A stretch of DNA of 31,025 nucleotides from a virus (taxonomy: Duplodnaviria > Caudoviricetes), in IMG/VR virus record IMGVR_UViG_3300020044_008050, positions 1 through 31,025 of that record, one strand, 5' to 3'. Below, piece after piece: positions 1 to 29,933 of the stretch (positions are counted from its first letter, which is position 1; each line of letters opens with the position of its first letter). Position numbers and translations under genes: made by a program. The notes below the pieces were generated by a model that saw only the letters and a list, made by a program, of their open reading frames with translations, made no database searches and was not told where the DNA came from.

Positions 1-807
1 CTTGCTATTAAGACGAACGGCACCCTTTGGTCATGGGGGGAAAACAATAGGGGCCAACTAGGCCAATTAGACCTCATAAACCGTTCCTCGCCAGTTCAAA
101 TAGGAGCAGTTACTAATTGGTCGCAGATTGCTGCCGGGGGTAATACAGGATTTGCGCTCGCCATAAGAACAAATGGCACTCTATGGGCGTGGGGTTACAA
201 CAGATTTGGTCAGCTTGGGATTGGAATAGCTTACAATGCGGGCGATCCGGCTGCCTCTTACGACGTATCAAGCCCGGTACAAGTAGGGGCGCTAACAACG
301 TGGTCAAAGGTAGCTGCTGGCAACAACCACGCTCTTGCCATTAAGACAGACGGGACTCTTTGGGCGTGGGGCAGAAATGCGGACGGGGCGCTAGGGCAAA
401 ACAACCTTATATATCGTAGTAGCCCAGTGCAAATTGGGGCATTAACCACATGGTCTCAGGTTTCAGCAGGGTCTTCGTTTTCCTTCGCTATTAAAACCGA
501 CGGTACTATGTGGAGTTGGGGGATGGGGAGCAGTGGCCAGCTTGGCCTTAACAGCACCGCCTACCGCTCCTCTCCGGTCCAAATTGGCGCACTAACTACA
601 TGGGCGCAAGTTTCAGGAAACAGTAGTGGCGCTCTTGCGATTCAAACGAATGGTACACTGTGGAGCTGGGGTCTTGGTAACAATGGCCGACTTGGCCTTA
701 ACGATATTGCCAATCGCTCTAGCCCAGTTCAAGTTGGGGGATTAACAACATGGCTGCAACTGCCCACTGGGCCTATGTCAAACTTTTCAATGGCGATCAA
801 AAAATAA
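1..807 (+). CDS. RCC1-repeat beta-propeller protein, 5'-truncated by the window edge (putative receptor-binding/tail appendage protein)
   Basis: Frame 1 is open from position 1 (LAIKTNGTLWSWGENNRGQLG...) to TAA at 805-807; the track shows only 427..807. It has ~50-aa repeats AIKTDGTLW.WG.N..GQLG.....RSSPVQ.G.LT.W. Confidence 0.88.
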   Translation, partial: LAIKTNGTLWSWGENNRGQLGQLDLINRSSPVQIGAVTNWSQIAAGGNTGFALAIRTNGTLWAWGYNRFGQLGIGIAYNAGDPAASYDVSSPVQVGALTTWSKVAAGNNHALAIKTDGTLWAWGRNADGALGQNNLIYRSSPVQIGALTTWSQVSAGSSFSFAIKTDGTMWSWGMGSSGQLGLNSTAYRSSPVQIGALTTWAQVSGNSSGALAIQTNGTLWSWGLGNNGRLGLNDIANRSSPVQVGGLTTWLQLPTGPMSNFSMAIKK

Positions 808-839
808 CCATGAACAACCCATCAGGCATGAGGTGCTAA

Positions 840-1985: not shown

Positions 1986-3751
1986 ACAAAACTCTTCACT
2001 TCCTCTCAGGCGTTCCCCGTTCAGGCTCAACAGTTCTAGCTGCAATCCTGAATCAGAACCCGATGACGCATGTATCCACTACGTCTGCGCTGGGTGCTGC
2101 TCTGGACGGTCTGGCTACGGCATGGCACCGGGATAACCTTCTGGTCAGCAACGACCCCGAACGCAAGAAGCTGGCTCACACAATGCGTGGGGTGATTGAT
2201 GCGTTTTACGAAGAAGTCCCGAAGCCCGTTGTTATCGACAAAGCCCGTAACTGGCCGATTCCTGTCATCATGCAGGCTATGGGGCAAGTCCTTGGGCACA
2301 AGCCCAAGATCATCGCAACAGTGCGCTCAATCCCTGACTGCATGGCTTCCTTCGTGCGCGTAGCAAAGCCCACTGACCTTGATGACTTCCTTGTCAACGG
2401 GTCGCTGGCAAACCACCTGAAAGGCTCCTACCAGACGCTCCAGCAGGGCTACGACTACGACCCTGAGTGCTTTCTGTTTGTGGAGTACGAAGACCTGTTG
2501 GCCGACCCCAAAGCTCAGCTGAGCCGTATCCACGCATTCCTCGACCTGCCCGACTTCAACTACGACTTTGCCAACATCGACGGCTCTACGGTGAAAGAGG
2601 ATGACGAGAACCTGCACGGTTACTCTGGCCTGCACGACATCAAGCCCGTGCTGGAAAGACAACACAACGACAGCCCCAAGGACGTACTGAAGCACCACTA
2701 CCCGCAGTTCTGTCAGCCTGAGTTCTGGCTGGATAGACCTCGCACCGTCCCCGATATCCACGACCTTGATCTGCAACTGGTGGCCTCGAAGATGGGTGAC
2801 TTTGCCGAAGGCTGGAGACTCTGCCAGAAGCTGGAGAAGGAAGAGCCTGATAATCACCGAGCGGCTTATAACCGTGGTTGGTATCTCTTGCGTCAGGGCC
2901 AGATACAGAAGGGCTATCAACTGCTGGATCGTGGTCGCATTGTTAACGTCTTTGGTAACGCCAAGCCTAACGTCCCGACTGTTGCGTGGGATGGTAAGAG
3001 CAAGGGCATCGTCATGCTCCACCTGGAAGGCGGTCTGGGCGATCAGATCCACCAGGTCAGGTACGCCAAGTCAATTGCTGATCGTGGCTGCAAGGTGATC
3101 GTGTCCTGCTCTGGCCCGCTGGCGTCCCTGTTCACCGATGTAGAAGGCGTGTCCGCTGTGATCCAACACGAAGCGAGCTTTGGTATTTACCACGACTACT
3201 ACGTGCAGGGCATGTCCGCTATCGTGCCTCTGGGCCTTGAACTGGACGATCTGTCGGGCAAGCCATACATCACCAGACCCAAGGCAATCAAAGCCCGCAG
3301 TAAGCGCATAGGACTCCGGTGGCAGGGGCAGTCAGCCTTCGAGGCAGACCACAACAAGAAGTTCCCCTACGACCTCATGTTCAATGCAGTGAAAGACGTA
3401 GACGCTGAGTTCATCTCCCTGCAACGTGACGAGGGTGCCGATTCCTGCCCGGCATGGGTTAAGCAAGTCCCGCTGGATAGCTGGGAAGACACCCGCCTGG
3501 CTGCGGCATCGTGTGATCTGGTGATTTCGGCGTGTACTTCCGTGAGCCATTTGGCTGCTTCGATGGGCGTGGAGACTTGGGTTGTAACCCCGGTAATGCC
3601 ATACTTCCTCTACGCGCTGGAGGGAGACACCTGCCCCTACTACGACACAATGAAGCTCGTCAGGCAGGAGGTGTTCGGTGATTGGACGGCTCCGTTCGAG
3701 AAGATTAAAGAGCGCCTTGGCGAGAAAAAAGCACTGAGGAGAGTCAAGTGA
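1982..3751 (+). CDS. Sulfotransferase + TPR + GT-B (GT9-like) glycosyltransferase fusion
   Basis: The N-terminus has the PAPS-binding loop GVPRSGSTVL, the 3'-phosphate motif ATVRSIPDCMAS and YEDL. A TPR-like segment (AAYNRGWYLL) follows. The C-terminal EGGLGDQI...RY, IGLRWQG, FISLQ and DLVISACTSVSHLAASMG motifs are typical of TPR-associated GT9-like domains. ATGA overlap with the upstream gene. Confidence 0.85.
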   Translation: MNKTLHFLSGVPRSGSTVLAAILNQNPMTHVSTTSALGAALDGLATAWHRDNLLVSNDPERKKLAHTMRGVIDAFYEEVPKPVVIDKARNWPIPVIMQAMGQVLGHKPKIIATVRSIPDCMASFVRVAKPTDLDDFLVNGSLANHLKGSYQTLQQGYDYDPECFLFVEYEDLLADPKAQLSRIHAFLDLPDFNYDFANIDGSTVKEDDENLHGYSGLHDIKPVLERQHNDSPKDVLKHHYPQFCQPEFWLDRPRTVPDIHDLDLQLVASKMGDFAEGWRLCQKLEKEEPDNHRAAYNRGWYLLRQGQIQKGYQLLDRGRIVNVFGNAKPNVPTVAWDGKSKGIVMLHLEGGLGDQIHQVRYAKSIADRGCKVIVSCSGPLASLFTDVEGVSAVIQHEASFGIYHDYYVQGMSAIVPLGLELDDLSGKPYITRPKAIKARSKRIGLRWQGQSAFEADHNKKFPYDLMFNAVKDVDAEFISLQRDEGADSCPAWVKQVPLDSWEDTRLAAASCDLVISACTSVSHLAASMGVETWVVTPVMPYFLYALEGDTCPYYDTMKLVRQEVFGDWTAPFEKIKERLGEKKALRRVK

Positions 3752-4962
3752 GCCAGAAATACCCCGGTGGTCTAATCACGAAGTCCCCGCCTGCTACTGT
3801 CGGCCCTGTTGATGGCGAGGGCGGCTCTGCGCCGGGTATCTGGACTCTGACTCAGGCGTTGGAGTTGAACAAGCAGAACCTGTGGCCGAAGCCTCTAATC
3901 CCAAGGCAGCTATGGGGCTGGGGCACTAACACCAACGGGCAGCTTGGCCTCAACGACACAGCAAACCGCTCGAGTCCGGTGCAAGTTGGTTCTTTAACTA
4001 ATTGGTCTATGATTGCGTCAGGACAATATCAGGTTTTAGCCACAAAAGCAGACGGCACACTTTGGTCTTGGGGGCGTAATTATTTCGGTGCGTTGGGTCT
4101 TGGAAATACTATTAACAGCTCCAGCCCCGTGCAGGTAGGCGCGTTAACAACGTGGTATCAAGTAGCTTCTGGCAACAACCACGCTCTTGCCATTAAGACA
4201 GACGGCACACTTTGGAGTTGGGGGTCAAATGCTCAGGGCCAGCTTGGCCTTGGGGATGTTGCAAATAGGTCTAGTCCCGTACAGGTTGGGGTGCTGACAA
4301 CGTGGTATCAATTAGCTGCTAGCAGATATATGTCTTTTGCTATTAAAACAGACGGCACGATGTGGAGCTGGGGTTATAACAGCGATGGTGAGCTTGGTCT
4401 TGGAAATGTTGCGTACCGCTCAAGCCCTGCTCAAGTTGGCACGCTAGCAACGTGGTCTAGGGTGGCTTCTGGGTTTAGCCACGCCGTTGCCATTAAAACA
4501 GACGGAACGCTCTGGAGTTGGGGGAGTAACAATCAAGGTCAGCTCGGTCTTGGAAATACTATTAACCGCTCCAGCCCAGTGCAAGTAGGCTCGTTAACAA
4601 ACTGGGCGCATATAGCTGCGGGCACTCGAGTTAACATTGCAATTAAAACTGACGGCACCTTGTGGAGCTGGGGGGCTGGCGGCAGTGGTCAGCTTGGTCT
4701 TGGAGATGTTGCGTACCGCTCAAGCCCGGTCCAAGTAGGGGCCCTCACTACATGGACTGAAATAGCTGTTGGCACTAGGCACGTTATTGCCAAAAATACT
4801 AGCGGCGCATTATGGGCTTGGGGGCTTAACAGCAGCGGACAGCTTGGCCTCAACGACACAGCAAACCGCTCCAGCCCTGTGCAGGTAGGCGCATTAACAA
4901 CGTGGTCGCGTCTACCAAAAATGCCTTCAAGCATATCATCCTTCGCCCTCAAAACACCTTAA
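3748..4962 (+). CDS. RCC1-repeat beta-propeller protein (7 repeats), putative tail appendage
   Basis: 404 aa, GTG start overlapping the previous stop (GTGA), seven exact 50-aa (150-nt) repeats, N-terminal YPGGLI...APGIWTL...LWPKP leader. Confidence 0.9.
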   Translation: MSQKYPGGLITKSPPATVGPVDGEGGSAPGIWTLTQALELNKQNLWPKPLIPRQLWGWGTNTNGQLGLNDTANRSSPVQVGSLTNWSMIASGQYQVLATKADGTLWSWGRNYFGALGLGNTINSSSPVQVGALTTWYQVASGNNHALAIKTDGTLWSWGSNAQGQLGLGDVANRSSPVQVGVLTTWYQLAASRYMSFAIKTDGTMWSWGYNSDGELGLGNVAYRSSPAQVGTLATWSRVASGFSHAVAIKTDGTLWSWGSNNQGQLGLGNTINRSSPVQVGSLTNWAHIAAGTRVNIAIKTDGTLWSWGAGGSGQLGLGDVAYRSSPVQVGALTTWTEIAVGTRHVIAKNTSGALWAWGLNSSGQLGLNDTANRSSPVQVGALTTWSRLPKMPSSISSFALKTP

Positions 4963-4977
4963 ATCAGGAGATACAAA

Positions 4978-5376
4978 ATGTTCTTTGTAAAAATTGTAAA
5001 CAACGAAGTAACCCAGTGCTGGGACACTCAGCCTCCCGCTGGCGAGTCCGGCTGGAAATCCGCCGTTGAGGTGCGCCCTGCTCTGACGCCAAACCGTCAG
5101 CAGTACACCAGCCACAGCTTTGACATCACCAAAGACCCTGTCGAAATTGTCTGGGGCGTCGTTGATATCACCCCCGAAGATCGCAAGGGTGGTATGCGCT
5201 CGCAGGCTGCTGCTGAGTTCCAGCAGGTTGTAAACGAGGAAATGCGCAAGGAAGTCGATGAGTTCCCTGAAACTCAGTACAACGCTGCTACTGTTGACGC
5301 TGCCCGTGTAGCCTTTGAAACGAAGGTCACTGCAATCAACGCAGCCACTACGCACGAAGAACTGGATGCGCTGTGA
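4978..5376 (+). CDS. Tail fibre assembly/chaperone-like protein
   Basis: 132 aa, strong SD AGGAG, directly after a fibre-like gene. The C-terminus AINAATTHEELDAL resembles Tfa/DUF4376-type endings. Confidence 0.55.
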   Translation: MFFVKIVNNEVTQCWDTQPPAGESGWKSAVEVRPALTPNRQQYTSHSFDITKDPVEIVWGVVDITPEDRKGGMRSQAAAEFQQVVNEEMRKEVDEFPETQYNAATVDAARVAFETKVTAINAATTHEELDAL

Positions 5377-6068
5377 GACTGAACTTCTCGTATGACATGA
5401 CACCATCGAAAGCCTACATCATCCGTGTAGTGGGTAATGCTGCCTCTGAAGAAAAGGCAGCTCGGTGTGCCGTGTCATGCGAGAAAGTAGGCCAGCCCTA
5501 CGAGTTCTGGGACGCCTACGATGGTTTAGCAGACGAGATCAAAGCACCTGCTCATCACAATCCGATCATGGACTGCATCAAGGTCACGGATCATTACCTG
5601 ACCCGTGGCGAAGTAGCGTGTGCCTTGTCCCACATAAGCCTATGGGCTAAGTGTGTACTGGAAGACAAGCCTCTGGTGATCCTGGAGCATGATTCAGTGA
5701 TGGTGCAGCCTTATACACAGCACGCTGTCTTCAACTCGATCTGTTACTTGGGATCGCACGAGCAGGTGAAACTTGGCTGGCAGGTATCTGCTACGCCACC
5801 CCACGCGACTGAGGGTGAGAACTACCACTTCATCTGTCGTGCCCATGCGTATGCAATTGATCCGGCTGTGGCGAAGAACCTGCTGGCCTACGTCATCAAA
5901 ATGGGTATCTGTACCTCCCTTGATATGCTGATTCGGGCTGACCTGTTCCCCATTCACCAGATGGGCATATACGCTTACAACGTGTTCGAGAGCAGAGAAG
6001 AAACTACCATCAAGGGCCGAGCCTTAGAGGGCCGGGCTACCAAGCGCAACGATAATTTGTTGGTGTAG
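5373..6068 (+). CDS. Glycosyltransferase family 25 protein
   Basis: GT25 motifs AYIIRV, FWDAYDG, GEVACALSHISLW, VILEHD and AHAYAI. GTGA overlap with the upstream gene. Confidence 0.85.
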   Translation: MRLNFSYDMTPSKAYIIRVVGNAASEEKAARCAVSCEKVGQPYEFWDAYDGLADEIKAPAHHNPIMDCIKVTDHYLTRGEVACALSHISLWAKCVLEDKPLVILEHDSVMVQPYTQHAVFNSICYLGSHEQVKLGWQVSATPPHATEGENYHFICRAHAYAIDPAVAKNLLAYVIKMGICTSLDMLIRADLFPIHQMGIYAYNVFESREETTIKGRALEGRATKRNDNLLV

Positions 6069-12199: not shown

Positions 12200-12429
12200 T
12201 AGCTGTCACTCGACCAACCTACATGAAATTGGGGGATTGGGCAGATCAGATGGTGTACGAGCTGGAAACCTACGGGCCTTTCAGCAAGCTGTTGGATGAG
12301 AATAAATGGCAGGACTGGGGGGTGCAGTTTCTGGCGCCGCTTGGCCTGGGTGGATACAACATCGCCAACCCCTACCAGTTTACTGACTGGAGGTTGTGGG
12401 CAGAGTACGTGGTGGGAGAACTGGCATGA
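12196..12429 (+). CDS. Small Trp-rich tail-cluster protein
   Basis: 77 aa with ATGA overlaps on both sides and a WQDW...NPYQFTDWRLWA motif. Confidence 0.65.
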   Translation: MIAVTRPTYMKLGDWADQMVYELETYGPFSKLLDENKWQDWGVQFLAPLGLGGYNIANPYQFTDWRLWAEYVVGELA

Positions 12430-14087
12430 TGCAGGGCTACGAGCGCAGCAAGGTCAAGGTTGGCGAACGTCCGGCCATTGAGGAGGAGCGGGAGATTTAT
12501 CTGCCCGACGAGTACCGCATGGGTGCGCCAGATCGCATGCCTATGATGGTCCGTGCGTTCGACCCTGACCGCGAAGGCTCTATGATGGGCTACATGACCT
12601 ACAAGAAGGGTGGCCTGCACAAAGCTGCCAACCAGGTCCGCAGTGCTGGTCGCCATGACGACACCATGCTCATCCATGTGAACGAGGAAGAGTTCCAGAA
12701 AATGCGGGAGATGTTCGGGGATCCGATCATGAACCCCGAGACCGGCCTGCCTGAATACGGGTTCTTCAAGAGCCTCAAGAAGGCATTCAAGAAGATCGCG
12801 CCCGTGCTCAGTGTGGCCGGCATGTTCGTCCCGGCCCTAAGCGTTGTTGGCAAGCTGGCGTCCGGTCTGGGGAAAATTGGTGTCACCAACGCGGCTCTGG
12901 CAAACACTCTGGCCGGCGCGGCAGTTGGCGGAGTCACTGGCGGGAAGAAAGGCGCCATCATGGGAGGCCTTGGCGGCTTTGCGTCGTCCCCCGGCGCAGC
13001 ACGCCAGATTGGCTCCATGGTGCCCGGTGTCCAGAATGAAGCCCTCCAGACGGCCATCGGTCGTGGCGTCGTTGGCGCTGGCGGTGCTGCCCTGACTGGG
13101 GGAGATCCGCTCTCCGCTGGCTTTACCGCCGCCGCTGCCGGGTACGGCGCTGACCAGTTGGCCGGCTCGCAGTTCGTCCAGCAGGGTCTGAGGAACAGCC
13201 CCTTGCTGCAGCAGGCGGCTCTGGGTGCGGCTCAGGGGCTTAACGTCGCAGGCCAGACTGGTGGTGACCTTGGCAAGGGCGCGTTGATTGGCGGTGCCTT
13301 GGGCGCGGCTACAAGCGCAGCAGACTCGGCTCTGGCCAGATTCAAGGGTGGCGACCAGGGTACATTCTCAGCAGTGCCGCAAGAATCGCCCCTACAGACA
13401 GCCCAGACCGGGCTTCCTGCAGCACAGGGCATGTCCCCGGCCACACAGGCTCCCATGACTGCGCAGATTGGTGCTGCCATGGCCCCAGTCATGAGCAACC
13501 TACTGTCCCGCCCAGAGGCCTCTATGGTCATCTCGCAGGCATCTCAGGTGGCAACCAAGGCAGAGGCCGTCCAGGCAGCCGCTGCTCTCGGTGCCAACCC
13601 TGACACGCGCCCTGTCTACGATGCCATGTCCAACTTCAAGATGTGCGACAACGCCCCGCATTTTGGTGCGTGCTTCTCGCAGAACTTTGGCACGTTCATG
13701 AACTCCATCAGCCAGAACTCGCCGAAACTGGGCGCCCCGATGGCCGCTAAAACTGGCGGCCTGGCACGGTATGCACAAGGTGGCTACGCCTCTGGCGGCT
13801 ACGCTTCAGGCGGTATGCCTGGTGTTGCATCGAGCATGGTTGAGCTGGCCGTAGGTGGTCCTGGCGATGGGCAGGACGATCAGATCCCGGCCCTGCTGTC
13901 GGATGGCGAGTTCATCATCCCGGCAGACGTAGTATCTGCGCTCGGATCCGGCTCGACCGATGCTGGCTCGAAAGCGTTGTACGACATGATCCATAACGTC
14001 CGTGGCTCTTACCGTAAGGCAGGGGTTAAAGACATTCCGCAGAAAGCGAAATCGCCTCTGCAGTACATGAAAGCGAGGGCCAAATAA
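12426..14087 (+). CDS. Internal virion (ejection-type) protein
   Basis: Likely start is ATG at 12426, overlapping the previous stop. Motifs GR..DTMLIHV...NPETGLPEYGFF, a Gly/Ala-rich hydrophobic middle, and C-terminal GPGDGQDDQIPALLSDGEFIIPADVVSALG. Confidence 0.65.
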   Translation: MMQGYERSKVKVGERPAIEEEREIYLPDEYRMGAPDRMPMMVRAFDPDREGSMMGYMTYKKGGLHKAANQVRSAGRHDDTMLIHVNEEEFQKMREMFGDPIMNPETGLPEYGFFKSLKKAFKKIAPVLSVAGMFVPALSVVGKLASGLGKIGVTNAALANTLAGAAVGGVTGGKKGAIMGGLGGFASSPGAARQIGSMVPGVQNEALQTAIGRGVVGAGGAALTGGDPLSAGFTAAAAGYGADQLAGSQFVQQGLRNSPLLQQAALGAAQGLNVAGQTGGDLGKGALIGGALGAATSAADSALARFKGGDQGTFSAVPQESPLQTAQTGLPAAQGMSPATQAPMTAQIGAAMAPVMSNLLSRPEASMVISQASQVATKAEAVQAAAALGANPDTRPVYDAMSNFKMCDNAPHFGACFSQNFGTFMNSISQNSPKLGAPMAAKTGGLARYAQGGYASGGYASGGMPGVASSMVELAVGGPGDGQDDQIPALLSDGEFIIPADVVSALGSGSTDAGSKALYDMIHNVRGSYRKAGVKDIPQKAKSPLQYMKARAK

Positions 14088-15471: not shown

Positions 15472-18051
15472 ATGACCACTTTGAGTCCAGGTAGTTATGG
15501 TGGCGATGTCTCAGCCTCCGTTATTGTGTATGGGCCTGACGGCAAGATGTACCCCAATCCGGCAGCCGCAATGGCAGCTGGCGTAACGAATTACACGATG
15601 ACGCCGCCTGCCACTACTGGCACCGCTCCGGTAGCAAACATCCCGACCTACGGATACGAACTGCAACGGATGATGCAGCAGTACGGGGTGAGTGCTCCGG
15701 TGGCTCCGCGCACCTCGGACCAGAAGCTGCTTGATCAGTATTTCTCAAAACTGAACACACCCATGTACGAGCAGCCCAGCGGCAACGCACTGTTCAACAA
15801 GTACCTCGACATCGGTATGGGCAAGGTTGCTGCACCCTCTGGCCCGATGACCGATTTCTTCCCAGGTCAGGCTGTGTGCCCAGAGGGTCAGCGGTATGAT
15901 CCTGTGACCACCAAGTGCGTCAGTGTCACCGCGCCTGGTGGCGTAGCAGAGGCTGGACGAATCACCACCGGCACGCCGAACATCGGTGGCAACCAGTGCC
16001 CTCCCGGATTCAATTTCGACCCGGCAACCCGCAGCTGTGTGCCGACACCGATCACCGGCATCCCTGTGGACAACAGGTCGATCAGTGAGCAGCAGCCAAT
16101 GCCGACCTGTCCGCCCAACACCACGCTGGACCCGGTGAACAGGATCTGCATACCGAAAGGCTGCCCTGCCGGGTACGAGATGGACGCAAGCGGGAACTGT
16201 GTGGCCAAGTCCATGCAGGTGCCGTGCCCGCCCGGTTTCACTCGCGATGCTGCCAGTGGCGCGTGCATTCAGGATGAGGTTCGGGGGCCCGGAAGTATAA
16301 CTCCAGAGCCTATAACTCCAACTCCAGAGCCTATAACTCCAAAACCTATAACTCCAGAGCCTATAACTCCAAAACCTATAACTCCAGAGCCATGCCTGCC
16401 CGGCTACGTCCGCAATAGTGCCGGAGCATGCGTGCCGGATCCTGAGCAGGTCGCACTGGTCAACAAGTATTATGGCAAGGGCGCTGGCGGGTACGACCTG
16501 TACTCTGCAGTGCAGAAAGGCGACCTGAATCTCAACGTGGCGCGTGATGTGATCGGTGCCGACGTTGTGGATCCGTGGCTGTCCAAGGCCGTCGACCCTG
16601 ACAAGACCTTCAGCTCGTGGGCAATTCAAAACCTCGCCACGCAGCGCGACAATAACCAGCAGGCCACTGGAGGCTCGGGAGCAGAGAAGCTGTTCGACCT
16701 CTACCAGCAAGGCTCTGTTGGCCTGGGAGAGATTGAGGACGCGCTTGGCAAGACCAAGGTGCAAAACTGGATGAAGGCGTACAGGCCCGATGCGTATAAG
16801 AGCGCCTACGGTCTGGCAGAGGGAGGCCGAGTGGACTTTGACAGCATGGTGAAAAAATACCAGGTCGGCGGTCTGAACCGCATGTCCGGTTTCAATCCAA
16901 TGGTCATGGGCCAGCAAGAGGAAGACCCCTACACGCCTCCGATGTTCATTGAGCCTGGCCTGCGCGACATGATGGATCGCTACGACATGCGACCCGAGCA
17001 GATGATCCGCTCTGGCTCGATGGCCGCAGCCCCTGCAGCCGCTCCGTCCATCACGGCTCCACAGTCCATGGCTACACCCCAGCCCGGCATGATGTCGGCC
17101 CGTGAGCGGTACGATGAGGCTGCTGGCCGCCTGCGCAGTACGATTGAAGAACTGAGCCAAGCGGCGCCCTCAAAAGGCCCGTCCAAGGCTGAGATGTATT
17201 TCCGTCTTGCTGCAGCGTTCGGTCGTCCAACCGCGACCGGCAATTTCTTCGAGAGCCTCGGTGAGGCAGGACAGGAGATGGCTCAGTACAAGGCCGAGCA
17301 GCGTGCTGCTGAATCGTCGTCTGCAGAACAGCGTCGCAACCTTGCCCTGGAACTGGCCAAGTTCGATGTCACACAAGCGAAAGACCTCATGCAGGCGGAG
17401 CGCGAATTGATGTCGGCACAAGGCCCGTATGGCAAACAAGCTGCAGATGAAGGCCTCGTTCGTGGTACGCCGGCATTCACAGCGCGTGTTCAAGAGTTGT
17501 CGGAGCAGGCGCTTGAACAAGAGCGACTGAAATACGCGACGCAAGTGTTGCGCGAAGAACGCTTGGGGAGCGCAATCCCCGCCGGAATGCAGGCTCGAGC
17601 AGCTGAAAAAGCGGACATTATTGACGCATCAAATACGGCGCTCGCAACGCTACAAGAAGCACTGCGTATAAACCCAGTGACGTATGGTGGTGGCTGGAGA
17701 GAGTTTACTGAGCGAATGGCCACGGGTGATTTTGATCCCGACAGTCCACAGGCAAAAGCAACCGCAACCCAGGCAAATTTGCTTGAGCGCGGAGCCTTGC
17801 AGCAGTTGAAAATTATTTTCTCTGGTGCAACGTCTGATCAGGAAAGCCGTATGCTGCTTGCAATGGAGGGTCTGGGAAGTGTCTCGCGTGATGTTCGAGC
17901 AGATATTATTCAAAACTCAATCAGCCTGATTGAGGCAAGAAAACAAGGTGCTGAAAAAGCGTTGAGCGATATTCAGGGACGCCGCTTTGCAAGCTATGGC
18001 GACATTGGTATAGAAGGTACTGAACAAGAGGGTATGGGTAATGGCGAATGA
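15472..18051 (+). CDS. Internal virion protein with Cys-rich repeats and a C-terminal helical region
   Basis: 859 aa, SD AAGGAG, six C-P/L-x10-11-C units, an ITP(E/K)P linker, LAEGG and YQVGG motifs, and a helical C-terminal half. Confidence 0.65.
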   Translation: MTTLSPGSYGGDVSASVIVYGPDGKMYPNPAAAMAAGVTNYTMTPPATTGTAPVANIPTYGYELQRMMQQYGVSAPVAPRTSDQKLLDQYFSKLNTPMYEQPSGNALFNKYLDIGMGKVAAPSGPMTDFFPGQAVCPEGQRYDPVTTKCVSVTAPGGVAEAGRITTGTPNIGGNQCPPGFNFDPATRSCVPTPITGIPVDNRSISEQQPMPTCPPNTTLDPVNRICIPKGCPAGYEMDASGNCVAKSMQVPCPPGFTRDAASGACIQDEVRGPGSITPEPITPTPEPITPKPITPEPITPKPITPEPCLPGYVRNSAGACVPDPEQVALVNKYYGKGAGGYDLYSAVQKGDLNLNVARDVIGADVVDPWLSKAVDPDKTFSSWAIQNLATQRDNNQQATGGSGAEKLFDLYQQGSVGLGEIEDALGKTKVQNWMKAYRPDAYKSAYGLAEGGRVDFDSMVKKYQVGGLNRMSGFNPMVMGQQEEDPYTPPMFIEPGLRDMMDRYDMRPEQMIRSGSMAAAPAAAPSITAPQSMATPQPGMMSARERYDEAAGRLRSTIEELSQAAPSKGPSKAEMYFRLAAAFGRPTATGNFFESLGEAGQEMAQYKAEQRAAESSSAEQRRNLALELAKFDVTQAKDLMQAERELMSAQGPYGKQAADEGLVRGTPAFTARVQELSEQALEQERLKYATQVLREERLGSAIPAGMQARAAEKADIIDASNTALATLQEALRINPVTYGGGWREFTERMATGDFDPDSPQAKATATQANLLERGALQQLKIIFSGATSDQESRMLLAMEGLGSVSRDVRADIIQNSISLIEARKQGAEKALSDIQGRRFASYGDIGIEGTEQEGMGNGE
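16297..16392 (+). repeat. 15-bp coding tandem repeat ATAACTCCA(G/A)A(G/A)CCT
   Basis: Five full units plus 9-nt and 12-nt partial units (96 nt in total), encoding ITPEP/ITPKP. Confidence 0.95.
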
Positions 18052-22151: not shown

Positions 22152-22447
22152 CGTCCATCTCCGTCAACAACGTTTGGCATAACTGGACGCGCCCTCATAG
22201 CAGCCATGATCGCATCCACTACAGCCGCGTCCTCTGGCTCCCAGGCGTATTTGCTTTCGATCAAGAGCATGATGGTGTGTATTGCCTTGTAGCAGTCTTT
22301 CTTGCCAGCGCCATCGGCATGCCTGGTGATGTACTTGACTGCGGTGTGTTGGCAGGCATCGAGCCTGTTGGCCATGCTGTATTCCATAGGCTGGATGGCC
22401 AGCTTCTTGTAATGATTTCCGCCAATCTGTGTTTCACTGGCTTTCAT
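22148..22447 (-). CDS. DUF3310 (SaV-like / T7 gp1.7-related) protein
   Basis: Start is ATG at 22447 behind SD AGGAGG. Motif QIGGNHYK...IQP.EY......AVKYITR.....D..KA. Confidence 0.8.
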   Translation of the reverse strand: MKASETQIGGNHYKKLAIQPMEYSMANRLDACQHTAVKYITRHADGAGKKDCYKAIHTIMLLIESKYAWEPEDAAVVDAIMAAMRARPVMPNVVDGDGR

Positions 22448-23159
22448 TTCCCTCCTGCGCGGTAACGTACTGGCGGTGCGTCTTGCGGTTGGCTGTGTAG
22501 AAGTTGCTGGCAGCAAACGGGATGAACACATCATCAATTGGGACGAACTCGCATTCCACCCGGCGGCGCTCGTTGTTGCGCCAGAACTTCAGGTACTGGC
22601 CACCGCCCAAGGGGAGCTGCGTGGTCAGCTGCTCAAGCTCAGACCGGAAGGACTGCATCTGCTCGGTCAGCTGCCAGTTGAGGAAGTCAGCCTTGCGCTG
22701 GGCCTTATCCAGCTTGCCCGACGTCTTCTCGCCGTACATCTTCGTGCGGACAGGCCCATTCGGGGGCATCAGCTCTTTCATGACTCGAGCGGAGAAGTCC
22801 ACGCAACCTTCAATCAGCATCGGGTGGACAATCTTGGTGGCGCCAGAGAACTGGGCACCACCAGGCGCATCGTCACCCATACCAGTGCGGCGCAGGCCTT
22901 CCTCGTACAGCTTGTCGCGCTTCTCGCGGGCCTTCTTATCGAGTTCGATCTTGTCCAGCAGGTCGTCAACGATGGTGGTCAGGACGGACTGGTCAACCTC
23001 GTCGACGATGTTGGCAAAGTGCTCTTCGCTGCGGGCGAGGGTGCTCTCACCATCGTCCAGCGAGACAATTGCGCCACCGTCTTCGGTGTCCTCAACGTCC
23101 GAGGCCTGCTCATCCATTTCGATGAACTCTTCGTCTGCATCTGTACGGTTCTCTGCCAT
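22434..23159 (-). pseudogene. Portal protein, N-terminal 241 aa only (truncated)
   Basis: An acidic N-terminus is followed by portal motifs D...R..R...YEEGL, HPML.E..VDF.AR...EL.P..GPVRT, FLNWQLTEQM, LPLGG and EFVPIDD. The frame ends inside the start of the DUF3310 gene. Confidence 0.75.
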
Positions 23160-23161
23160 GA

Positions 23162-23323
23162 CTACCTCGTGGGGGATTCTTGTGCAGGCAGCCGAAACAT
23201 TTCCGGCATGTCTGATTCATCCAGGTCTTCGGGAATATCACCAAAATACATGAGGTTCAGGTAATTTTCTCGTGTCAAGGGAATTCCTGCTTCACGCATT
23301 GCGACTATCGTTTCATCGTCCAT
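23162..23323 (-). CDS. 53-aa acidic protein absent from the ORF track
   Basis: Manual translation gives MDDETIVAMREAGIPLTRENYLNLMYFGDIPEDLDESDMPEMFRLPAQESPTR*. It overlaps the end of the giant gene by 11 nt, ends 2 nt before the portal start and fills the gap exactly. Confidence 0.75.
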   Translation of the reverse strand: MDDETIVAMREAGIPLTRENYLNLMYFGDIPEDLDESDMPEMFRLPAQESPTR

Positions 23324-26300
23324 ACCATGCCGGCAGTTCAATGCCGCCTCCTATGTCTAGTAATTGTTCTCGCGTTTCGCCGCCAGTTATTCTGCCGAGC
23401 CTGTATTGATTCATCGCGTTTGCCACTTCATCTTGTAGCAAGTCGCTACGCTTGCTTTCAGGACTGTACAGGCCACGGATTGCTTCCCATGTGATTGACT
23501 GCATAGCCCTGGGATCAGTCACGCCACGCTCGGCAGCCGCTCGGCGTACAGCATCTGCATACAGCCCATACGTGCCACGCGCCCCAGTTAAGTTGCTGGA
23601 TGACGCGCTGCCCAAATTGTGTTCTACCTCTGGCGATGCTCCAGACAGCGGGCGCATCAGCGCAGCAGCCACGTTATGGGTATCCGATGTTACGCTTTGG
23701 CCTGTGTACGGGTCGACGATGTTATTGTAAAAGCTGCGCACCTTGTGCATTTCCCCAAGCATGCGGTTGATGTTTTCCATGGTTGGGTCTTGGAATATCG
23801 ACAACGCTTTTGCAATTTCCCTCAACGACCCCCAACCAACTTTGGCCTCGTCGCCCTCACCGGTCTTGCTGGAGCCGATCACATTCCCCAGCGGGTCGAC
23901 GATATTATACCCCCTCGGATTGTATGCCTCATCGTACAAGCGCAGCCACACTGCTTTTTTAAGAGGCGAATCCAGTTCATTGAGAGACCGATCCTTGATC
24001 AAATCCACAATCGCTGCTGTCTTCTCATTGAACCCGCCTTTTGGCTTGTCAATCAGATACTGCGCCCTGCGCGCCATTTCTGGACTGAATCGGAAATCGC
24101 CGTAGTTATTCGCGATTTCCATGACGCGGTCGCCCAAGGATATGTTCTTGAACCAGTCCATCTGCGGCGAGAGCGAGGCATATACCCCAGCAGCGCCTTC
24201 GATGGGGATCCCATACTTGGTAGCTGCCTCATCGGCGATTCGGTTTGCCCCTTCGTACCAGCGCGATGACATGCGGCGCACATCCTCCGGCACCTGGTCA
24301 TACAAGAACAGCAGGTTCTCCACGGCTTGATCGCCCAACAGGCCGAACACGCTTTCCGGATCTGTCGGCGCCGAAACTGGGTAGTTTGCGTATTGCGACA
24401 TGGTCTCAGCTTGCTTGCGCATTTGCTCTGGCGACTGCCTGATTACATCCACGCCAATGGTTAAGGATGGATCGTATGGATCGCCTTCAAATTTCGTTGA
24501 TGTCGGTACTCGCTCGGACACCTGCATGCCAGTGCGCACAGAGCGGTTCAGGAACTCGCGCTCGGCAGGGGTCAGGTAGTCGGCATCAGGCGTTTCTGCG
24601 CGTGGCACATCCTTTCCTGGTCCCTTGGGCGGTGTCGGCAACCCACCCTTTGCCAGTTTCTGCGGCTCCATCAGCTCGTTGACCATGGACTCGATTCGAG
24701 CGGGATCGTATACCGGACCGCCCTCTGCCTTAGTGACTACTGGTCTTTTGCCAGACCTGCGGATTGCCTCGTACATGGACTCGCCAGGTTCTGGACGGAA
24801 GTGCAGCATCGGCATATTGCCGGGGGCCAGGCGCGGATTGTCCTTAGACTGGTACTTCAGGGAGCCATACGGCATCAGGTAGGCATCCGTGTCGCGCAGT
24901 CCTCTGGCCCATGTAAAGTCACCAGACAGCATATTGCTAACGGGGTCAACCATTCCGCTGCGAAGACCCTCTGACAGGATGGACTCTACCCGTTCAGCAC
25001 TGCCTGGACGGATGTCCTGGTGTATTGCAAGGTGCGGCGCGATCAGGTCAAAGTCTTCTTGCGTCCAGGTCTGCGGGTCAGCTTCTGCCGCACGCACCAG
25101 CCGCTCTAGCTGCTCCGTAGAGCCTGTTGAGGGGAACCCCAGTGCCTTGGCCTTCTGTTGCAGCGTTAGCCGCCCAAGGCCTCCCTTGCTCATTTCGACA
25201 GCACCACCATCGGCGAACCCAAACCGCGGCGGTTCATAGCTGAAGCGGCGGTCAACAGGACGGGCGGGTAACTTCGCGGTCAGCTCCCTGGTTGAAGGCA
25301 GGTCGATTGCAGCGTTGCGACGCAGCATCTGCATAAGGTCGTCGTAGTCAATTTGTGCCTGGCGTTCAGCGGCCTGCTCGCCTGGGTTGCTAAATGCTGC
25401 GCGACTAGCACCGCCTAAAAGTGTACCCAAGGCGTAGTTGCTCAGTTTTGGATTGACAGTTGGCCCAAAGTAGTCAAACGGCAATGCAATCATGTCGCCA
25501 ATGGTTTTTGCTGTTAATTTGAGCATTTTTGCCTTTTGTGCCGTTGGCAGCGGGCCTTGTCCGAACATTTCACCACCGGCCAATGCAAATTGGCTGGGCA
25601 CGCTCAACGTATCAGCTGGGCCAAGACCACGCTTTTCTAGCATTTGATTCAACAGATCATCATAGGCCTGGGATGCGTTTGCCGATCCTGCCATCATGGT
25701 TGATGCGGCATCGCGTACCGTTTCTGGTATCAACATTTCACGAGCAGCAGCCCCGCGCTCAGATACCTCTTGCATTCTTTCTGCTGCCATTGGAGACAGG
25801 TATTCGATGCCACTGCGCAGGGCGCCAGCCCCAAGGGATCCAAGGCTGCGGAATGTTTGCGGCAACGCTGCAACACTTAACGCCAGCCCTGACATGCCAT
25901 CTTCGTTTGGCGTGGTTTGCGTATCAAACGCAGCGATCAGGGCGTTTATGGGGTCTGGCGCGTATCGAGCAACCAAATCGTCCCACGTGAGCGGGACTCG
26001 GCCACCGGGATTTGCTTTTAAGAAATCGTCTTCCACAATACCACCCTCTTTCATGCCTGGCGCTTGCTCATCACGCAAGAGCTGCAGGAGATAGTCATCA
26101 TACTCGGCATCTGTCATGTAACGCTGCTGGGGTTGAGGCCTGCCAGAGAATTCACGGGTCGCGTCTCTTAAGCGGGCGTTGTTCAGTTCCTGCACATCGA
26201 TCCAGTTTTGCGAACGAACGAAGTCTTGGACAAACGGGACGTATTGATCCACCGGAGCGCGATTGCCCTTGCCCTTGATCTGGATGATCCTCTGGCGGTT

Positions 26301-29300
26301 GCCAAGTAGTTTTGCTGCCTCTTCCGCAAAATCACTGGTGCTCTCCAGGTACTTATCAAACCACTCGTTGCGATCAGGGATCTCGCCCTGCTCACGGAGC
26401 CGCGGCTTCAGGGCATTCCAGTATTCGTTGAAGTCAGCCTCTTCCGGGTGGAACTCGGGCACAGCCTCAATCGTGACATGGGGCATGCCTTGGGCATCTC
26501 GAAGCGAGTAAATGCGCGACGCTCCCGACATAACCGAATCACAATACCCGCCGACACAATGACCCATGGTGTCTCCCTCGTACTTCAGGGCATCACCTAC
26601 TGCACGCTCTGCCCAGCCGCGTGAGGTTATAGTGCCGTCAGGCATTCTGTAATCACCGCTGTTGAGTCTCTCCCAGCCTTCGGGAATGTCGGCATCCGGC
26701 GTAATCTGCACCCAGCGATACCCCTCAGGATATTGCTTCACCAGCTGCGTTGCTGGGTTTGTGGCAAATTGCGCGCTGGCCGCTGCCATTTGCTCTGCGC
26801 GGTACTGGTTGATCTTGCCTACCAGCTCGGATGCCTGGGGGAATGACATGCGCTGCAGACTCTCTGGGCGGATCTGCAGGTTTCGAGGCAAGCCCGCTTC
26901 GGCGCTCATGGCATTCATCAGCTCGTCTCTGAGGTGGCGAATGTTCAGACCCGGCTCCTCCAGCGTACCTGGGCGCAGGCCCATGTAGATTGGCGTCTCA
27001 GGGTCGACGCCTTCCAACCACTGGTTGCGCTCTTTCCACCACTGAGGCACAGCTCGAGCAGGCTCGCTGTACGGCCCAATCTCCCGCGGGGGCCAGACGT
27101 CCGACTGGACATGCCTGGTAGACAAATCACGCATGGGGTCAAACTCAGTGCCAAAATCGCGCTTCAGGTACTTGGTTGCAGTGCCGCCCAGCCAGGCGTT
27201 CAGTGCAGCTTTGCTCTGTACACTTTCCATGGCCTTTTCGTACGTTGCACGGGCTTCCGGCGATGAGGCCTGAAAATCGGGGCGTGACATTACCGATTGC
27301 AGCTCTTTCATAGCCTCCTCAACGCTCATTCCATGCTGGCGCGCTTGGTATGGCCTCATTTCCTCTTCGACCACATCCTTCAGCCACTGCCGCTGGGGAG
27401 TAGGCAAGCCGCCTTTTGCAAACCGCTGTACTTCATAGGCCTCATCATCGTAAGGCTCGAACTCGTACATGGGATCCAGCAGGTCGTCGACCATCTGGTT
27501 GATGCGGCTGGGGTCGTAGACAGGGCCGCCGTCTTTTTTGGTGATCACCGGGTTGGCAGGGTCAAAGGCGCCTTCGTTGCCGATGGCTGATTTGATCTGA
27601 GTTGGGCGAAAGGCCACAAAATGGCGTGTGTTTTTGTCAATCCCTTCCATTGTTGACCCAAACCGTTTAGCGACAGGATTGTATTGAATTCCGTCATACC
27701 CAGCGTGTTCGAATGCTCGTTGCAACAAATCCATTTTTGCAGGCGAATCCACAAATGTTTCTGGGTTGAGACTAAGCTGACCTTTCACCAAATTGATGAT
27801 GTCTTCCGCATCAAGAGCGCCTTTCTTCGACCGCTGCGCTTCTTGAATGAAGCGTTGGGCTGTCATGTAGTCCACGCCACTTTTTGGTATTTCTTCAAAT
27901 TCTGCAGCCGCCTTTGTGAACCCTTCCAGAAAATTGGCAAGACTACCATCCTGAATTGAAAAGTTTGTTGTGTCTTTTCCGCCAATTATTAAAGGATTTT
28001 TTATTGCAAGATGCACAGGATATACGACGCCCTCATTATCGGTTTTTCCTGTCAAATCAACGCCAAGGTTTTTGAATTTTTCAATGTTTGCGTAGTTTTC
28101 GGATGCGTCTGCCGGACTAGATGTGAAATAAAATCCTTTGCCCAACATGCCTGGCGTTGTTTTCGTTCGATCAAATTTATCAATGTCGGAAAATCCACCG
28201 AAAAACACCCGTAGTGGGTTGTCCTGCCTATCACGCACCTGGCTCTCACCAAACCAGTTCTTGAACTCTGGGGTGTCTGTCACCCGTGCCTTGTCTGCAA
28301 GATCCGTAGCTGCTCTCCCAAGACCACCCCTGCCAAACTTCGCTGGGCCGCCTTGTTTCTTCCCAAGGCCAGTCTCTTGTGCGGCCTCTGGGGCAAACCT
28401 GGCGTAAACACTGCGGACATCAGACGGGTCGAGGAAAATGATGCTCTCGCCGGTCTCGTAGGCTCCGGGCGAGAACTCAATACGCTCCATCTCGTTCCGG
28501 TACTTGTTGTACAGGGCAGCCTCTTCGGGATCGAGGTAGGACAGCGGGTCACGGGGGTGCAGGAACGCTTCAATTTCCTGCTCTGTGGCGCCAGGTTGTG
28601 GAGCCTGGGGGCGCATGCTCAGGCTCTTCTGGTACAGCGCGTCGGCATCGCGGGACAGCTGGTCAAGTCGATCCTGGTACTCCGGCAGCAGGTTGGTAAG
28701 CTCTCCGTAGGCGTTTTCGTGCGTGTTGGGGTAGACAATTTGCCGGAAGCCCTGGTCACGGAGGTTTTGCCGGATTTCGGCCAGTGCCATGCGGTTTTCT
28801 ATGCTGTCCAGCCAGTCCTTTGATTGTTTCCCTGGGTATGCGTTTTTCTGAAGGTCAACGTCGTCAAACAGGGTGTGCATCCAGCCTTGTCCGCGCAGCT
28901 CAGGGGCAGTGCGCATATCCAACAGCGTGGTGTAGGCGTCCTTGAATTCGCCGACATCGGGCATCCTGAGCGTCTTGCCAGGCCTGTAAGCAAGGGGCAG
29001 CACGTTGGTGGTGTCGATGTACTGGCCTTGTTCTCTGCGCTCTTGCAGCTTGGCCTCGATAGCCTTGTCGAGGGCGCGGTTGGCCGCTTGGGTTGGCGTG
29101 CCAGCGTGTAGTCCAACGTCGGTGTAGTTCAGGTCAATCTCGTCCCACGGGGTGTCGGTGCTGTGGTAGACGATGTTCGTGAAGCCCTGGTCGATGGCTC
29201 TCTGGATGCGGTCGCGCTCTGTGGGGGACATCTTGGGCGACTTGAGCTTGTCGGCCATCATCGAAGCGTAGCGATTCAGACCGCCTTTGCCGAATTTTTT

Positions 29301-29327
29301 GACTTGCTTGCGGGCGGCGCGTTTCAT
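23313..29327 (-). CDS. Giant polyvalent protein (ART-PolyVal-like x2, PcfJ-like GNAT, possible third ART-like, HhH-glycosylase/DUF7178-like modules)
   Basis: 2004 aa. Module 1: YHST...GLHAG...IVYPN..E...IFLDPSDVRS. Module 2: PEFKNWFG...GFYFT...VYPVHL.IKNP...GYDGI...VAFRPTQIKSA.GN.G.FD. Module 3: EGDTMGHCVGGY...IYSLRD...QIKG. Last module: WY..AN...YASLSPQ.DW...HKVRSFYNNI...VTSDTH...MQSITW. Confidence 0.8.
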   Translation of the reverse strand: MKRAARKQVKKFGKGGLNRYASMMADKLKSPKMSPTERDRIQRAIDQGFTNIVYHSTDTPWDEIDLNYTDVGLHAGTPTQAANRALDKAIEAKLQERREQGQYIDTTNVLPLAYRPGKTLRMPDVGEFKDAYTTLLDMRTAPELRGQGWMHTLFDDVDLQKNAYPGKQSKDWLDSIENRMALAEIRQNLRDQGFRQIVYPNTHENAYGELTNLLPEYQDRLDQLSRDADALYQKSLSMRPQAPQPGATEQEIEAFLHPRDPLSYLDPEEAALYNKYRNEMERIEFSPGAYETGESIIFLDPSDVRSVYARFAPEAAQETGLGKKQGGPAKFGRGGLGRAATDLADKARVTDTPEFKNWFGESQVRDRQDNPLRVFFGGFSDIDKFDRTKTTPGMLGKGFYFTSSPADASENYANIEKFKNLGVDLTGKTDNEGVVYPVHLAIKNPLIIGGKDTTNFSIQDGSLANFLEGFTKAAAEFEEIPKSGVDYMTAQRFIQEAQRSKKGALDAEDIINLVKGQLSLNPETFVDSPAKMDLLQRAFEHAGYDGIQYNPVAKRFGSTMEGIDKNTRHFVAFRPTQIKSAIGNEGAFDPANPVITKKDGGPVYDPSRINQMVDDLLDPMYEFEPYDDEAYEVQRFAKGGLPTPQRQWLKDVVEEEMRPYQARQHGMSVEEAMKELQSVMSRPDFQASSPEARATYEKAMESVQSKAALNAWLGGTATKYLKRDFGTEFDPMRDLSTRHVQSDVWPPREIGPYSEPARAVPQWWKERNQWLEGVDPETPIYMGLRPGTLEEPGLNIRHLRDELMNAMSAEAGLPRNLQIRPESLQRMSFPQASELVGKINQYRAEQMAAASAQFATNPATQLVKQYPEGYRWVQITPDADIPEGWERLNSGDYRMPDGTITSRGWAERAVGDALKYEGDTMGHCVGGYCDSVMSGASRIYSLRDAQGMPHVTIEAVPEFHPEEADFNEYWNALKPRLREQGEIPDRNEWFDKYLESTSDFAEEAAKLLGNRQRIIQIKGKGNRAPVDQYVPFVQDFVRSQNWIDVQELNNARLRDATREFSGRPQPQQRYMTDAEYDDYLLQLLRDEQAPGMKEGGIVEDDFLKANPGGRVPLTWDDLVARYAPDPINALIAAFDTQTTPNEDGMSGLALSVAALPQTFRSLGSLGAGALRSGIEYLSPMAAERMQEVSERGAAAREMLIPETVRDAASTMMAGSANASQAYDDLLNQMLEKRGLGPADTLSVPSQFALAGGEMFGQGPLPTAQKAKMLKLTAKTIGDMIALPFDYFGPTVNPKLSNYALGTLLGGASRAAFSNPGEQAAERQAQIDYDDLMQMLRRNAAIDLPSTRELTAKLPARPVDRRFSYEPPRFGFADGGAVEMSKGGLGRLTLQQKAKALGFPSTGSTEQLERLVRAAEADPQTWTQEDFDLIAPHLAIHQDIRPGSAERVESILSEGLRSGMVDPVSNMLSGDFTWARGLRDTDAYLMPYGSLKYQSKDNPRLAPGNMPMLHFRPEPGESMYEAIRRSGKRPVVTKAEGGPVYDPARIESMVNELMEPQKLAKGGLPTPPKGPGKDVPRAETPDADYLTPAEREFLNRSVRTGMQVSERVPTSTKFEGDPYDPSLTIGVDVIRQSPEQMRKQAETMSQYANYPVSAPTDPESVFGLLGDQAVENLLFLYDQVPEDVRRMSSRWYEGANRIADEAATKYGIPIEGAAGVYASLSPQMDWFKNISLGDRVMEIANNYGDFRFSPEMARRAQYLIDKPKGGFNEKTAAIVDLIKDRSLNELDSPLKKAVWLRLYDEAYNPRGYNIVDPLGNVIGSSKTGEGDEAKVGWGSLREIAKALSIFQDPTMENINRMLGEMHKVRSFYNNIVDPYTGQSVTSDTHNVAAALMRPLSGASPEVEHNLGSASSSNLTGARGTYGLYADAVRRAAAERGVTDPRAMQSITWEAIRGLYSPESKRSDLLQDEVANAMNQYRLGRITGGETREQLLDIGGGIELPAWYGR

Positions 29328-29344
29328 GGGCTGCTCCGAGGGAA

Positions 29345-29692
29345 TAGTACCCGCACTCTATCACGGGTTGACTGTGCAATAAATCCCAGTGGTTCATACG
29401 TTTTCTCCAGGCATAGTGACCGACCCTTCCCCTTTAAACCCCATCACAGGTGCCATATAGGCGGGTACTAAGTCGCGAGACTTCAGACTTCTGGTGCTCG
29501 CCACCCGAGGGCGATACTCCTCGGATGTTCCTCCGACCAACAGGCCGGAAATAACCCTTTCTTGGGGACTTGCTCTCGTTGACGGTCGTGGGTATCCCTG
29601 AGCAAGTATTCATGGCGTCCGGTTAAAGCCCTGCCGAGGCATAGCACATGAGTTTCGGTCAGTTGGCAACACACACCGCCAGAGGAAGCGGT
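29345..29692 (+). ncRNA. Candidate structured RNA (unassigned family)
   Basis: Dense stems in an intergenic region: TAGTACCCGC/GCGGGTACTA, AAGTC-GCGA-GACTT, CCGAGG/CCTCGG, ACTTGCTC/GAGCAAGT, GGCCGGA/TCCGGTT and GCCGAGGC/GTTTCGGT. The G-U pairs and the GNRA loop favour the + strand. Confidence 0.4.
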
Positions 29693-29721
29693 CGAGGTTG
29701 GCGTTTTGTGACAAATTGGTG

Positions 29722-29751
29722 TTGCAACTAATGGACACCAATAAGTACAAT
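29722..29751 (+). promoter_or_regulatory. Sigma70-type promoter overlapped by an inverted repeat
   Basis: TTGCAA, 18-nt spacer, TACAAT. The inverted repeat ATTGGTGT/ACACCAAT (29714-29742) brackets the -35 box. Confidence 0.5.
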
Positions 29752-29791
29752 TTGGACAACATCGGAGCTTAGCCCTCCGGTGTCCGCTCCT

Positions 29792-29830
29792 CAAAGCCCT
29801 CAGATTTCGCGATCTGGGGGCTTTGTCTTT
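29792..29830 (+). terminator. Intrinsic terminator-like hairpin
   Basis: CAAAGCCCTCAGAT-TTCGCG-ATCTGGGGGCTTTG, a 14-bp stem with one G-U pair on the + strand, running into TTTGTCTTT. Confidence 0.65.
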
Positions 29831-29896
29831 CAGGAGCAGACATTTGCCAGCATCTTAAGCTGGCTGATTATGACTTACAACCCCTGCCGTAATCGG

Positions 29897-29929
29897 TTTG
29901 CGACAGCGACAGTTGCGACATTTGCGACA
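29897..29929. repeat. Four GCGACA direct repeats
   Basis: GCGACA at 29900, 29906, 29915 and 29924; three copies read TTGCGACA. Confidence 0.8.
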
Positions 29930-29933
29930 CCTG

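Follow-up and report, generated by a model that had tools for sequence, protein, structure and literature searches.

The stretch of DNA analysed here (the window; 31,025 nucleotides, IMG/VR record IMGVR_UViG_3300020044_008050) comes from an uncultured lake phage of the Caudoviricetes and contains, between the terminase and portal genes, an open reading frame (ORF; 23313..29327, minus strand) encoding a giant protein of 2004 amino acids (aa). The product is a polyvalent protein, a known kind, and can be divided into six modules bordered by copies of a short peptide, hereinafter the tag, with the consensus [YF]-A-[EDK]-G-G-x-V in proteins of this phage lineage. The tag is the site where modules are gained, lost and swapped among sister phages and lake contigs. 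By analogy with the tape measure protein pb2 of phage T5, there is about an even chance that it is also a maturation site, cut immediately before A-x-G-G, which would free the injected modules.

Modules and junction motifs of the giant protein

The ten Gly-Gly (GG) motifs that a preliminary description of the window, made from the letters alone, had located in the giant protein are all present, with the GG at aa 15, 326, 334, 600, 639, 1095, 1374, 1382, 1536 and 1561; 11 additional GG lie outside the motif pattern. The motifs are degenerate copies of the lineage-wide tag, in its wider form [FYM]-A-x-G-G-x-V: A-x-G-G is exact in four of the ten, and Gly, Ser or Lys replaces Ala in the others. 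The pattern formulated in the preliminary description matches the protein 10 times against 0.26 expected (5000 shuffles, maximum 3), but this is not an independent test because the pattern was fitted to this very protein; the independent test is provided by the relatives. The bracketing by motifs is incomplete, with a single motif at the junction of modules 3 and 4 and no closing motif for module 6, and the linkers at aa 597-645 and 1533-1567 are two copies of one element that is present in relatives as well.

The suggested kinship with phage polyvalent proteins is substantiated by the Pfam domains ART-PolyVal (aa 366-588), PcfJ (aa 913-955) and DUF7178 (aa 1666-1755), each of which lies within a single module. 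Two of the module labels that had been assigned initially hold, ART-PolyVal for module 2 and PcfJ for module 3, whereas module 1 can be linked to ART only via its homologue P0004 (E-value of 2.5e-4 with a local ART profile and 0.095 with Pfam ART-PolyVal). Module 5, labelled as a short ART-like domain, has no ART match in the searches run; module 6, labelled HhH-like, matches DUF7178 alone and no PDB sequence; and module 4, described as Gly/hydrophobic, lacks any 19-mer of strong hydrophobicity (the best Kyte-Doolittle mean being 0.94). Module 6 has 2714 relatives at E<=0.001, and the search of viral contigs with this module gave no match. The metagenome search with the whole protein retrieved distant ART relatives and nothing else. 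An AlphaFold2 model of aa 1-1097, built without an alignment, was discarded given its predicted local distance difference test (pLDDT) score of 38.

Module exchange at the tags

Tags are excluded from recognizable domains. In 52 dereplicated cargo proteins of the lineage, 39 of which contain Pfam stretches (51 stretches after merging of overlapping SLT families), none of the 147 tags is located inside such a stretch (15.6 expected), compared with 34 of the 469 other GG (43.8 expected). The ends of alignments with at least 70% identity are also concentrated at tags, 50 of 159 being no more than 20 aa away (null 25.3 +/- 4.2, at most 43 in 3000). With a limit of 40 aa, the effect is weaker (61 against 43.9 +/- 5.0, maximum 63). 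Among the closest relatives, the sister contig L002 tracks the window until just past motif 6 and then differs; protein P0001 retains module 1 and the paired tags, followed by a different module; and the sister protein P0106 aligns with modules 1, 3, part of 4, and 6, with modules 2 and 5 unaligned.

Contig joints from four sequencing runs labelled lake water or metagenome point in the same direction (rows with small shares were excluded). Among the 15 listed joints out of 18, 11 touch the giant gene, and five of these have ends at most 16 codons from a tag, a zone that makes up 13.5% of the gene. One of the five skips module 2 (822 nt), two skip modules 4 and 5, one has 546 other letters at motif 9, and one skips module 6. 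The other six joints in the gene include two with one end 14 codons from a tag and four inside modules. Single joints may stem from other phages because in four of the five near tags the shorter side is just 30-46 letters long, with a likeness threshold of 88. The absence of tags from Pfam stretches and the clustering of joints at tags uphold the proposal that the motifs are module borders.

Distribution of the tag in the lineage

Relatives were collected through the portal, and non-identical proteins from 80 loci were scanned with the strict pattern [FYM][AK][EDKRSQ]GG, with expectations taken from shuffles. The strict tag was found 172 times in 74 cargo proteins encoded between terminase and portal (3.5 expected), 41 times in 14 small basic proteins (0.5 expected) and 11 times in 232 unclassified ORFs. 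It was never found in 67 portals, 29 terminases, 33 capsid proteins, 38 scaffold-like proteins, 36 GroES, 32 proteins of the 197-aa family, 25 of the 176-aa family, 17 adaptors and 159 ORFs upstream of the terminase. These counts are not independent because the proteins are related and many are truncated. The tag is further present on ejection-like proteins in six complete relatives. Enrichment of the motif in related genomes, which the preliminary description had put forward as a check, is thus evident. The tag is not particular to the giant protein: several classes of probably internal proteins carry it across the lineage. Conservation is position-specific, with Tyr or Phe before Ala in 96% of 108 lineage tags and Val, Ala or Ile at +2 of GG.

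The tag could be a mere flexible hinge or recombination handle, that is, a gene-end remnant for shuffling that has no protein partner. Module exchange at tags is directly observed, as such a handle would predict, but small basic and ejection-like proteins, which are not cassette arrays, carry the tag as well; the conservation of individual positions speaks against a hinge; and the same pattern recurs in cargo protein 1 of crAss001, gpH of lambda and pb2 of T5. A hinge without further function is therefore improbable.

Proposed cleavage at the tag or docking through it

The giant protein is likely packed in the head, as indicated by its gene position, the wall hydrolases of its relatives, and the same tag on ejection-like proteins and on gp45 of crAss001. 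The cargo relatives carry SLT, tail lysozyme, CHAP, ART-PolyVal, PBECR5, PcfJ and DUF7178 domains; the wall hydrolases would fit delivery from the particle. In T5, the cut in pb2 has been mapped after R1127 (Linares et al., PMC10038345), directly behind which lies A-E-G-G, one of two A-x-G-G sites in the 1219 aa. Because T5 cuts pb2 just ahead of a peptide of the same pattern, the 2004-aa chain may well be cut into pieces, both the cutting and its register being modelled on T5 pb2. Under this scheme, six interchangeable modules strung together by one short peptide would be packed into the head and cut just ahead of the Ala of the tag, and separate pieces of about 36, 29, 52, 30, 17 and 49 kDa would exit the head one by one (masses computed for cuts at GG; a cut before the Ala would shift them by four residues). 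Paired tags would free a module with little linker and additionally supply DNA homology for cassette exchange. The cutting agent might be, speculatively, the small D/GE-bearing domain found behind the tag of ejection-like protein 1 and of tape measures, or a host protease.

Lambda gpH presents a similar arrangement. This protein is known to be trimmed, with a published estimate of ~78/14 kDa, at about residue 710, and the site and enzyme were called unknown in 2025 (PMC12617516). Among 18 head and tail proteins, only gpH contains the strict tag, at positions 733 and 778, both in the trimmed C-terminal part. A cut ahead of the Ala would also fit crAss001 gp45, in which the portal-bound density begins exactly at the Ala of an A-F-G-G (see below). 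In another lambda protein, gpI (L115:14773-15444), the resolved part begins at residue 134, at a GG, which is probably a matter separate from the tag.

Polyvalent proteins combine disparate domains in one chain and are predicted to be packaged and processed by built-in zincin metallopeptidases (MPTases) (Iyer et al. 2017, PMC5512222); the phrase 'GG motif' does not occur in that paper. The giant protein resembles them in joining unrelated enzyme-like domains and in being encoded near head genes in a terminase-portal phage, but it has a repeated junction tag and no HExxH. The HExxH motif is also absent from all 52 dereplicated cargo relatives, and there is no MPTase Pfam match. In contrast, of the 150 top-ranking relatives of module 6, 52 are at least 1500 aa long; 41 of these 52 contain HExxH, and one contains at least two strict tags. 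HExxH is thus common in these giant relatives and missing in the cargo of this lineage, where the tag stands in a chain that lacks the built-in metallopeptidase. Such a replacement of the MPTase by a junction tag would be a variant that was not found in the literature searched, of which coverage is incomplete; no proteomics for the lineage was found there either.

Several observations weigh against cleavage. Only four of the ten window motifs have the Ala ahead of which the cut would fall. The residue before Ala is Arg in T5 as opposed to Tyr or Phe in the lineage, so that the T5 cut may come from an unrelated enzyme; for phage JBD30, an Arg-C-type cut has been proposed by the authors, by prediction only (PMC11445458), a caution that something else may underlie the cleavage of T5 pb2 after Arg. 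In lambda, a cut at F733 would give 79.8/12.5 kDa, which deviates from the published estimate of masses and position. The capsid protein of the lineage contains a conserved, looser look-alike of the tag (32 loose matches in 33 proteins). No head protease was detected among 135 ORFs selected from the 260 listed for the complete relatives G001 and G004, many of which have no family, the only find being a tail-fibre S74 chaperone; and in P0106, the nearest sister, the HExxH pattern has a match. Finally, gp45 of crAss001 (cargo protein 1), a virion cargo by mass spectrometry and cryo-electron microscopy, is read by Bayfield et al. as an uncut, channel-forming chain (PMC10172136), and only one of its four published density borders falls exactly at a tag, residue 214 being seven after and residue 552 eight before one. 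As a separate observation on the capsid protein, the GG of the look-alike is at aa 70 of the product of L002:8783-9697.

The principal alternative is an uncut docking or loading tag that binds the portal, the scaffold or a domain of an ejection protein. Such binding would bring tagged proteins into the procapsid, and loading would be the tighter the more copies a protein carries. The class specificity of the tag fits docking too. A basic protein of 449 aa encoded downstream of the capsid gene (L085:29302-30651; its counterparts carry DUF6496) has 10 tag copies, a number as compatible with multivalent binding as with cutting. The last tag is close to the C-terminus in many cargo proteins, at a distance of 12-60 aa (at most 60 aa in 32 of 49), where a cut would free little. 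In gp45 of crAss001, with eight A-x-G-G sites in 842 aa, the resolved segments include a portal-bound density that starts at residue 425 and a tail-bound helix at 214-245 (PMC10172136); residue 425 is the Ala of an A-F-G-G, which thus lies within the stated portal-bound range, and the helix is located between two tags. The failure to find a protease is in line with docking as well. What docking leaves unexplained is the T5 cut exactly ahead of the pattern and the need for tags between all modules of one chain. Furthermore, when the published crAss001 peak lists from matrix-assisted laser desorption/ionization (MALDI; PMC6235969) were re-matched, gp47/gp50, gp49, gp44, gp26, gp25, gp32, gp36 and gp29 could be assigned, but in none of the 13 virion gel bands (15 to >300 kDa) did gp45 exceed the decoy level. 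This is weak evidence because the motif-free gp46 was not detected either; trypsin autolysis peaks and some weak peaks were omitted in the re-matching, as were the portal and the other proteins that precede gp25. On balance, docking without cutting appears less probable than cleavage. Docking and cutting can also coexist, by analogy with the T4 capsid targeting sequence (PMC5694885).

The preliminary description had proposed a different kind of cleavage, in which opening motifs with Lys or Arg and closing motifs with Asp, Glu or Gln form a two-class bracket code read by a cysteine protease of the adenovirus or African swine fever virus (ASFV) type that cuts after GG. All four pairs of the giant protein obey the charge split, but it breaks down in relatives, where seven of 33 distinct tag pairs have D/E/Q followed by K/R as in the window, four are reversed and most are acid-acid; in four of the seven, the final copy is part of a small domain. 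Moreover, the sister P0106 has canonical A-x-G-G at places matching the window motifs, the cut mapped in T5 pb2 at a like motif precedes Ala rather than following GG, and no cysteine protease Pfam match was found among the 135 ORFs. All this makes a bracket code very improbable.

Ejection-like proteins and the domain behind the tag

Beyond the giant protein, the window encodes two tagged ejection-like proteins (Table 1), and the tag is absent from 11 other window ORFs examined. The C-terminal domain of ejection-like protein 1 (13800-14084) is common to tape measures of siphophages (match to PDB 8zdo_S), contains an invariant Asp and Glu, and is often duplicated in homologues. It is located directly behind a tag and is a speculative candidate for the reader or protease of the tag. 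With its profile, lambda gpH scores weakly (E-value of 0.007 in a 5-sequence search) and T5 gives no score; its model (pLDDT 58) has no Foldseek match and no VIA match above Z 3.6. In the giant protein, no small GE-bearing domain was seen to follow the tags. The idea of an S24/S26-type Ser-Lys peptidase was dropped as the candidate Ser is not conserved.

A possible relationship between the ejection-like protein and the portal-binding C1 domain of the crAss cargo protein 1 family (PF25725) was suggested by an atlas lead (0.83) only: comparison of the profiles of the ejection domain and the crAss001 gp45 domain gave no match, nor was there a fold match. The C1 domain is absent from the giant protein. 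A second small domain, at 12600-12760 near the N-terminus of ejection-like protein 1, is found directly behind a tag in the cargo proteins of L009, L025 and L032. Ahead of its tag, ejection-like protein 3 has a repeat region rich in Cys as well as short tandem repeats rich in Pro.

Genomic context

In relatives, the gene order is terminase, large variable genes, portal, GroES-like, scaffold-like, 176-aa protein, 197-aa protein, capsid, small basic protein and tail; labels other than GroES, capsid and terminase were assigned from gene order or from annotated relatives. For the sister contig L002, the nearest relatives in culture are the Caulobacter phages RW, GB2A, RLK and KcrB (capsid 82.5%); CRP-901 and the Pelagibacter phage HTVC023P are at 40-44%. 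The ejection-like protein gp066c of phage RW bears one tag. An SU10-type adaptor together with a PHROG DNA-ejection match suggests a short tail.

Table 1. Features of the window discussed in the text (aa, amino acids; GG, Gly-Gly of the motif)
Feature	Coordinates	Strand	Remarks
Polyvalent cargo protein, 2004 aa, between terminase and portal	23313..29327	-	same locus in relatives: motif-rich proteins of 250-2250 aa
Motif 1, F-G-K-G-G, GG aa 15, near N-terminus	29280..29294	-	retained in P0001-P0003
Module 1, aa 17-327, probably divergent ART-PolyVal	28347..29279	-	via homologue P0004; no direct match
Paired motifs 2 and 3, GG aa 326, 334	28323..28361	-	module change behind pair in P0001; lake contig joint at 28345
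Module 2, aa 336-601, ART-PolyVal	27525..28322	-	Pfam PF18760, E 6.9e-18; 822 nt skipped in contig of run X4
Linker with motifs 4 and 5, GG aa 600, 639	27408..27539	-	homologous to linker 24642-24731
Module 3, aa 641-1096, PcfJ-containing	26040..27407	-	Pfam PF14284; sister L002 diverges just behind motif 6
Single motif 6, GG aa 1095, end of module 3	26040-26054	-	
Module 4, aa 1097-1375, no family match	25203..26039	-	partial homologue in L002
Paired motifs 7 and 8, GG aa 1374, 1382	25179..25217	-	
Module 5, aa 1384-1537, no family match	24717..25178	-	
Linker with motifs 9 and 10, GG aa 1536, 1561; recurrent swap point	24642..24731	-	
Module 6, aa 1563-2004, DUF7178	23316..24641	-	common in giant phage proteins
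Portal gene, cut off at ~aa 236	22434..23159	-	no PHROG or Pfam match; name taken from annotated relatives
Terminase large subunit, C-terminal part, open at contig end	30384..31025	-	
Ejection-like protein 1, four tag copies (12600, 13770, 13785, 13800)	12396..14087	+	
Ejection-like protein 3, one tag copy (16813)	15472..18051	+	counterparts in complete relatives carry one or two

The window is probably an assembly chimera at ~22450, because its portal stops at about aa 236 while the contigs L001 and L002 (98% identical) continue past this point, in L002 to a portal of 828 aa, and no listed contig piece from the four runs spans 22450. The ejection genes of the window may therefore belong to another genome copy; complete relatives hold cargo and ejection genes together. 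At 22434-22460, the broken portal adjoins a DUF3310-like gene, and head genes face tail genes, unlike in complete relatives. Elsewhere in the window, a sulfotransferase-TPR gene is surrounded by genes for three RCC1-like repeat proteins (427-4962), two of them complete and the third truncated at the contig start; a GT25 glycosyltransferase follows at 5373-6068. About 600 nt between the DUF6321 gene and the giant gene (29327-29930) contain no convincing gene. The complete relatives G001 and G004 encode Acb2/Tad1 and Tad2-like anti-defence genes (L088:3976-4221 and L095:18906-19415).

Implications and comparison with known systems

The five-residue tag bears on how small short-tailed phages choose, load and eject large enzyme cargo. 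It could serve as a sequence test for hypothetical proteins that ride in the particle and as a handle for loading foreign proteins, and the exchange at tags implies that wild phages trade anti-host enzymes as cassettes. The window contributes evidence of swapping in populations, a charge grammar that failed, the HExxH contrast and an exact register to test, with precise predictions for the lambda gpH cut (PMC12617516) and for crAss001 gp45 as chain or fragments. A broader hypothesis, which we consider rather unlikely, is that the T5 and lambda tape measures, crassvirus cargo and the cargo polyproteins of these abundant lake podoviruses have in common one ancient peptide signal, with cleavage before A-x-G-G, and that the small domain that follows it is the missing protease or reader, which would act on itself and in trans and replace the built-in MPTases of other polyvalent proteins. 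If so, lambda gpH would be cut at F733|A734, and the crAss001 gp45 in head and tail would be separate fragments.

The adenovirus protease and ASFV pS273R are virus-encoded cysteine proteases that cut virion precursors at or after a Gly-Gly motif. The giant protein shares the Gly-Gly motif with these precursors; an encoded cysteine protease and a cut after Gly-Gly are unsupported in its case.

Among phages, short peptides that address proteins to the prohead and are also protease sites are known as the T4 capsid targeting sequence and the A-x-E motif of SPN3US and phiKZ (PMC5694885). There, an N-terminal propeptide is removed after a Glu by a prohead protease that the phage itself encodes, whereas the window tags are internal, repeated and end in Gly-Gly. 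Like crAss001 gp45, the giant protein is a putative cargo with repeated A-x-G-G; gp45 has been seen in the virion, its resolved segments are located between tags, and it has no reported enzyme modules and is presented as one chain. As in the tape measures of T5 and lambda, A-x-G-G is located at borders, and a related domain stands behind the tag in the ejection-like protein of the window but not in the giant protein. The tape measures, however, are rulers of long tails with one cut, compared with the up to ten tags in the head cargo of a phage with an SU10-type adaptor.

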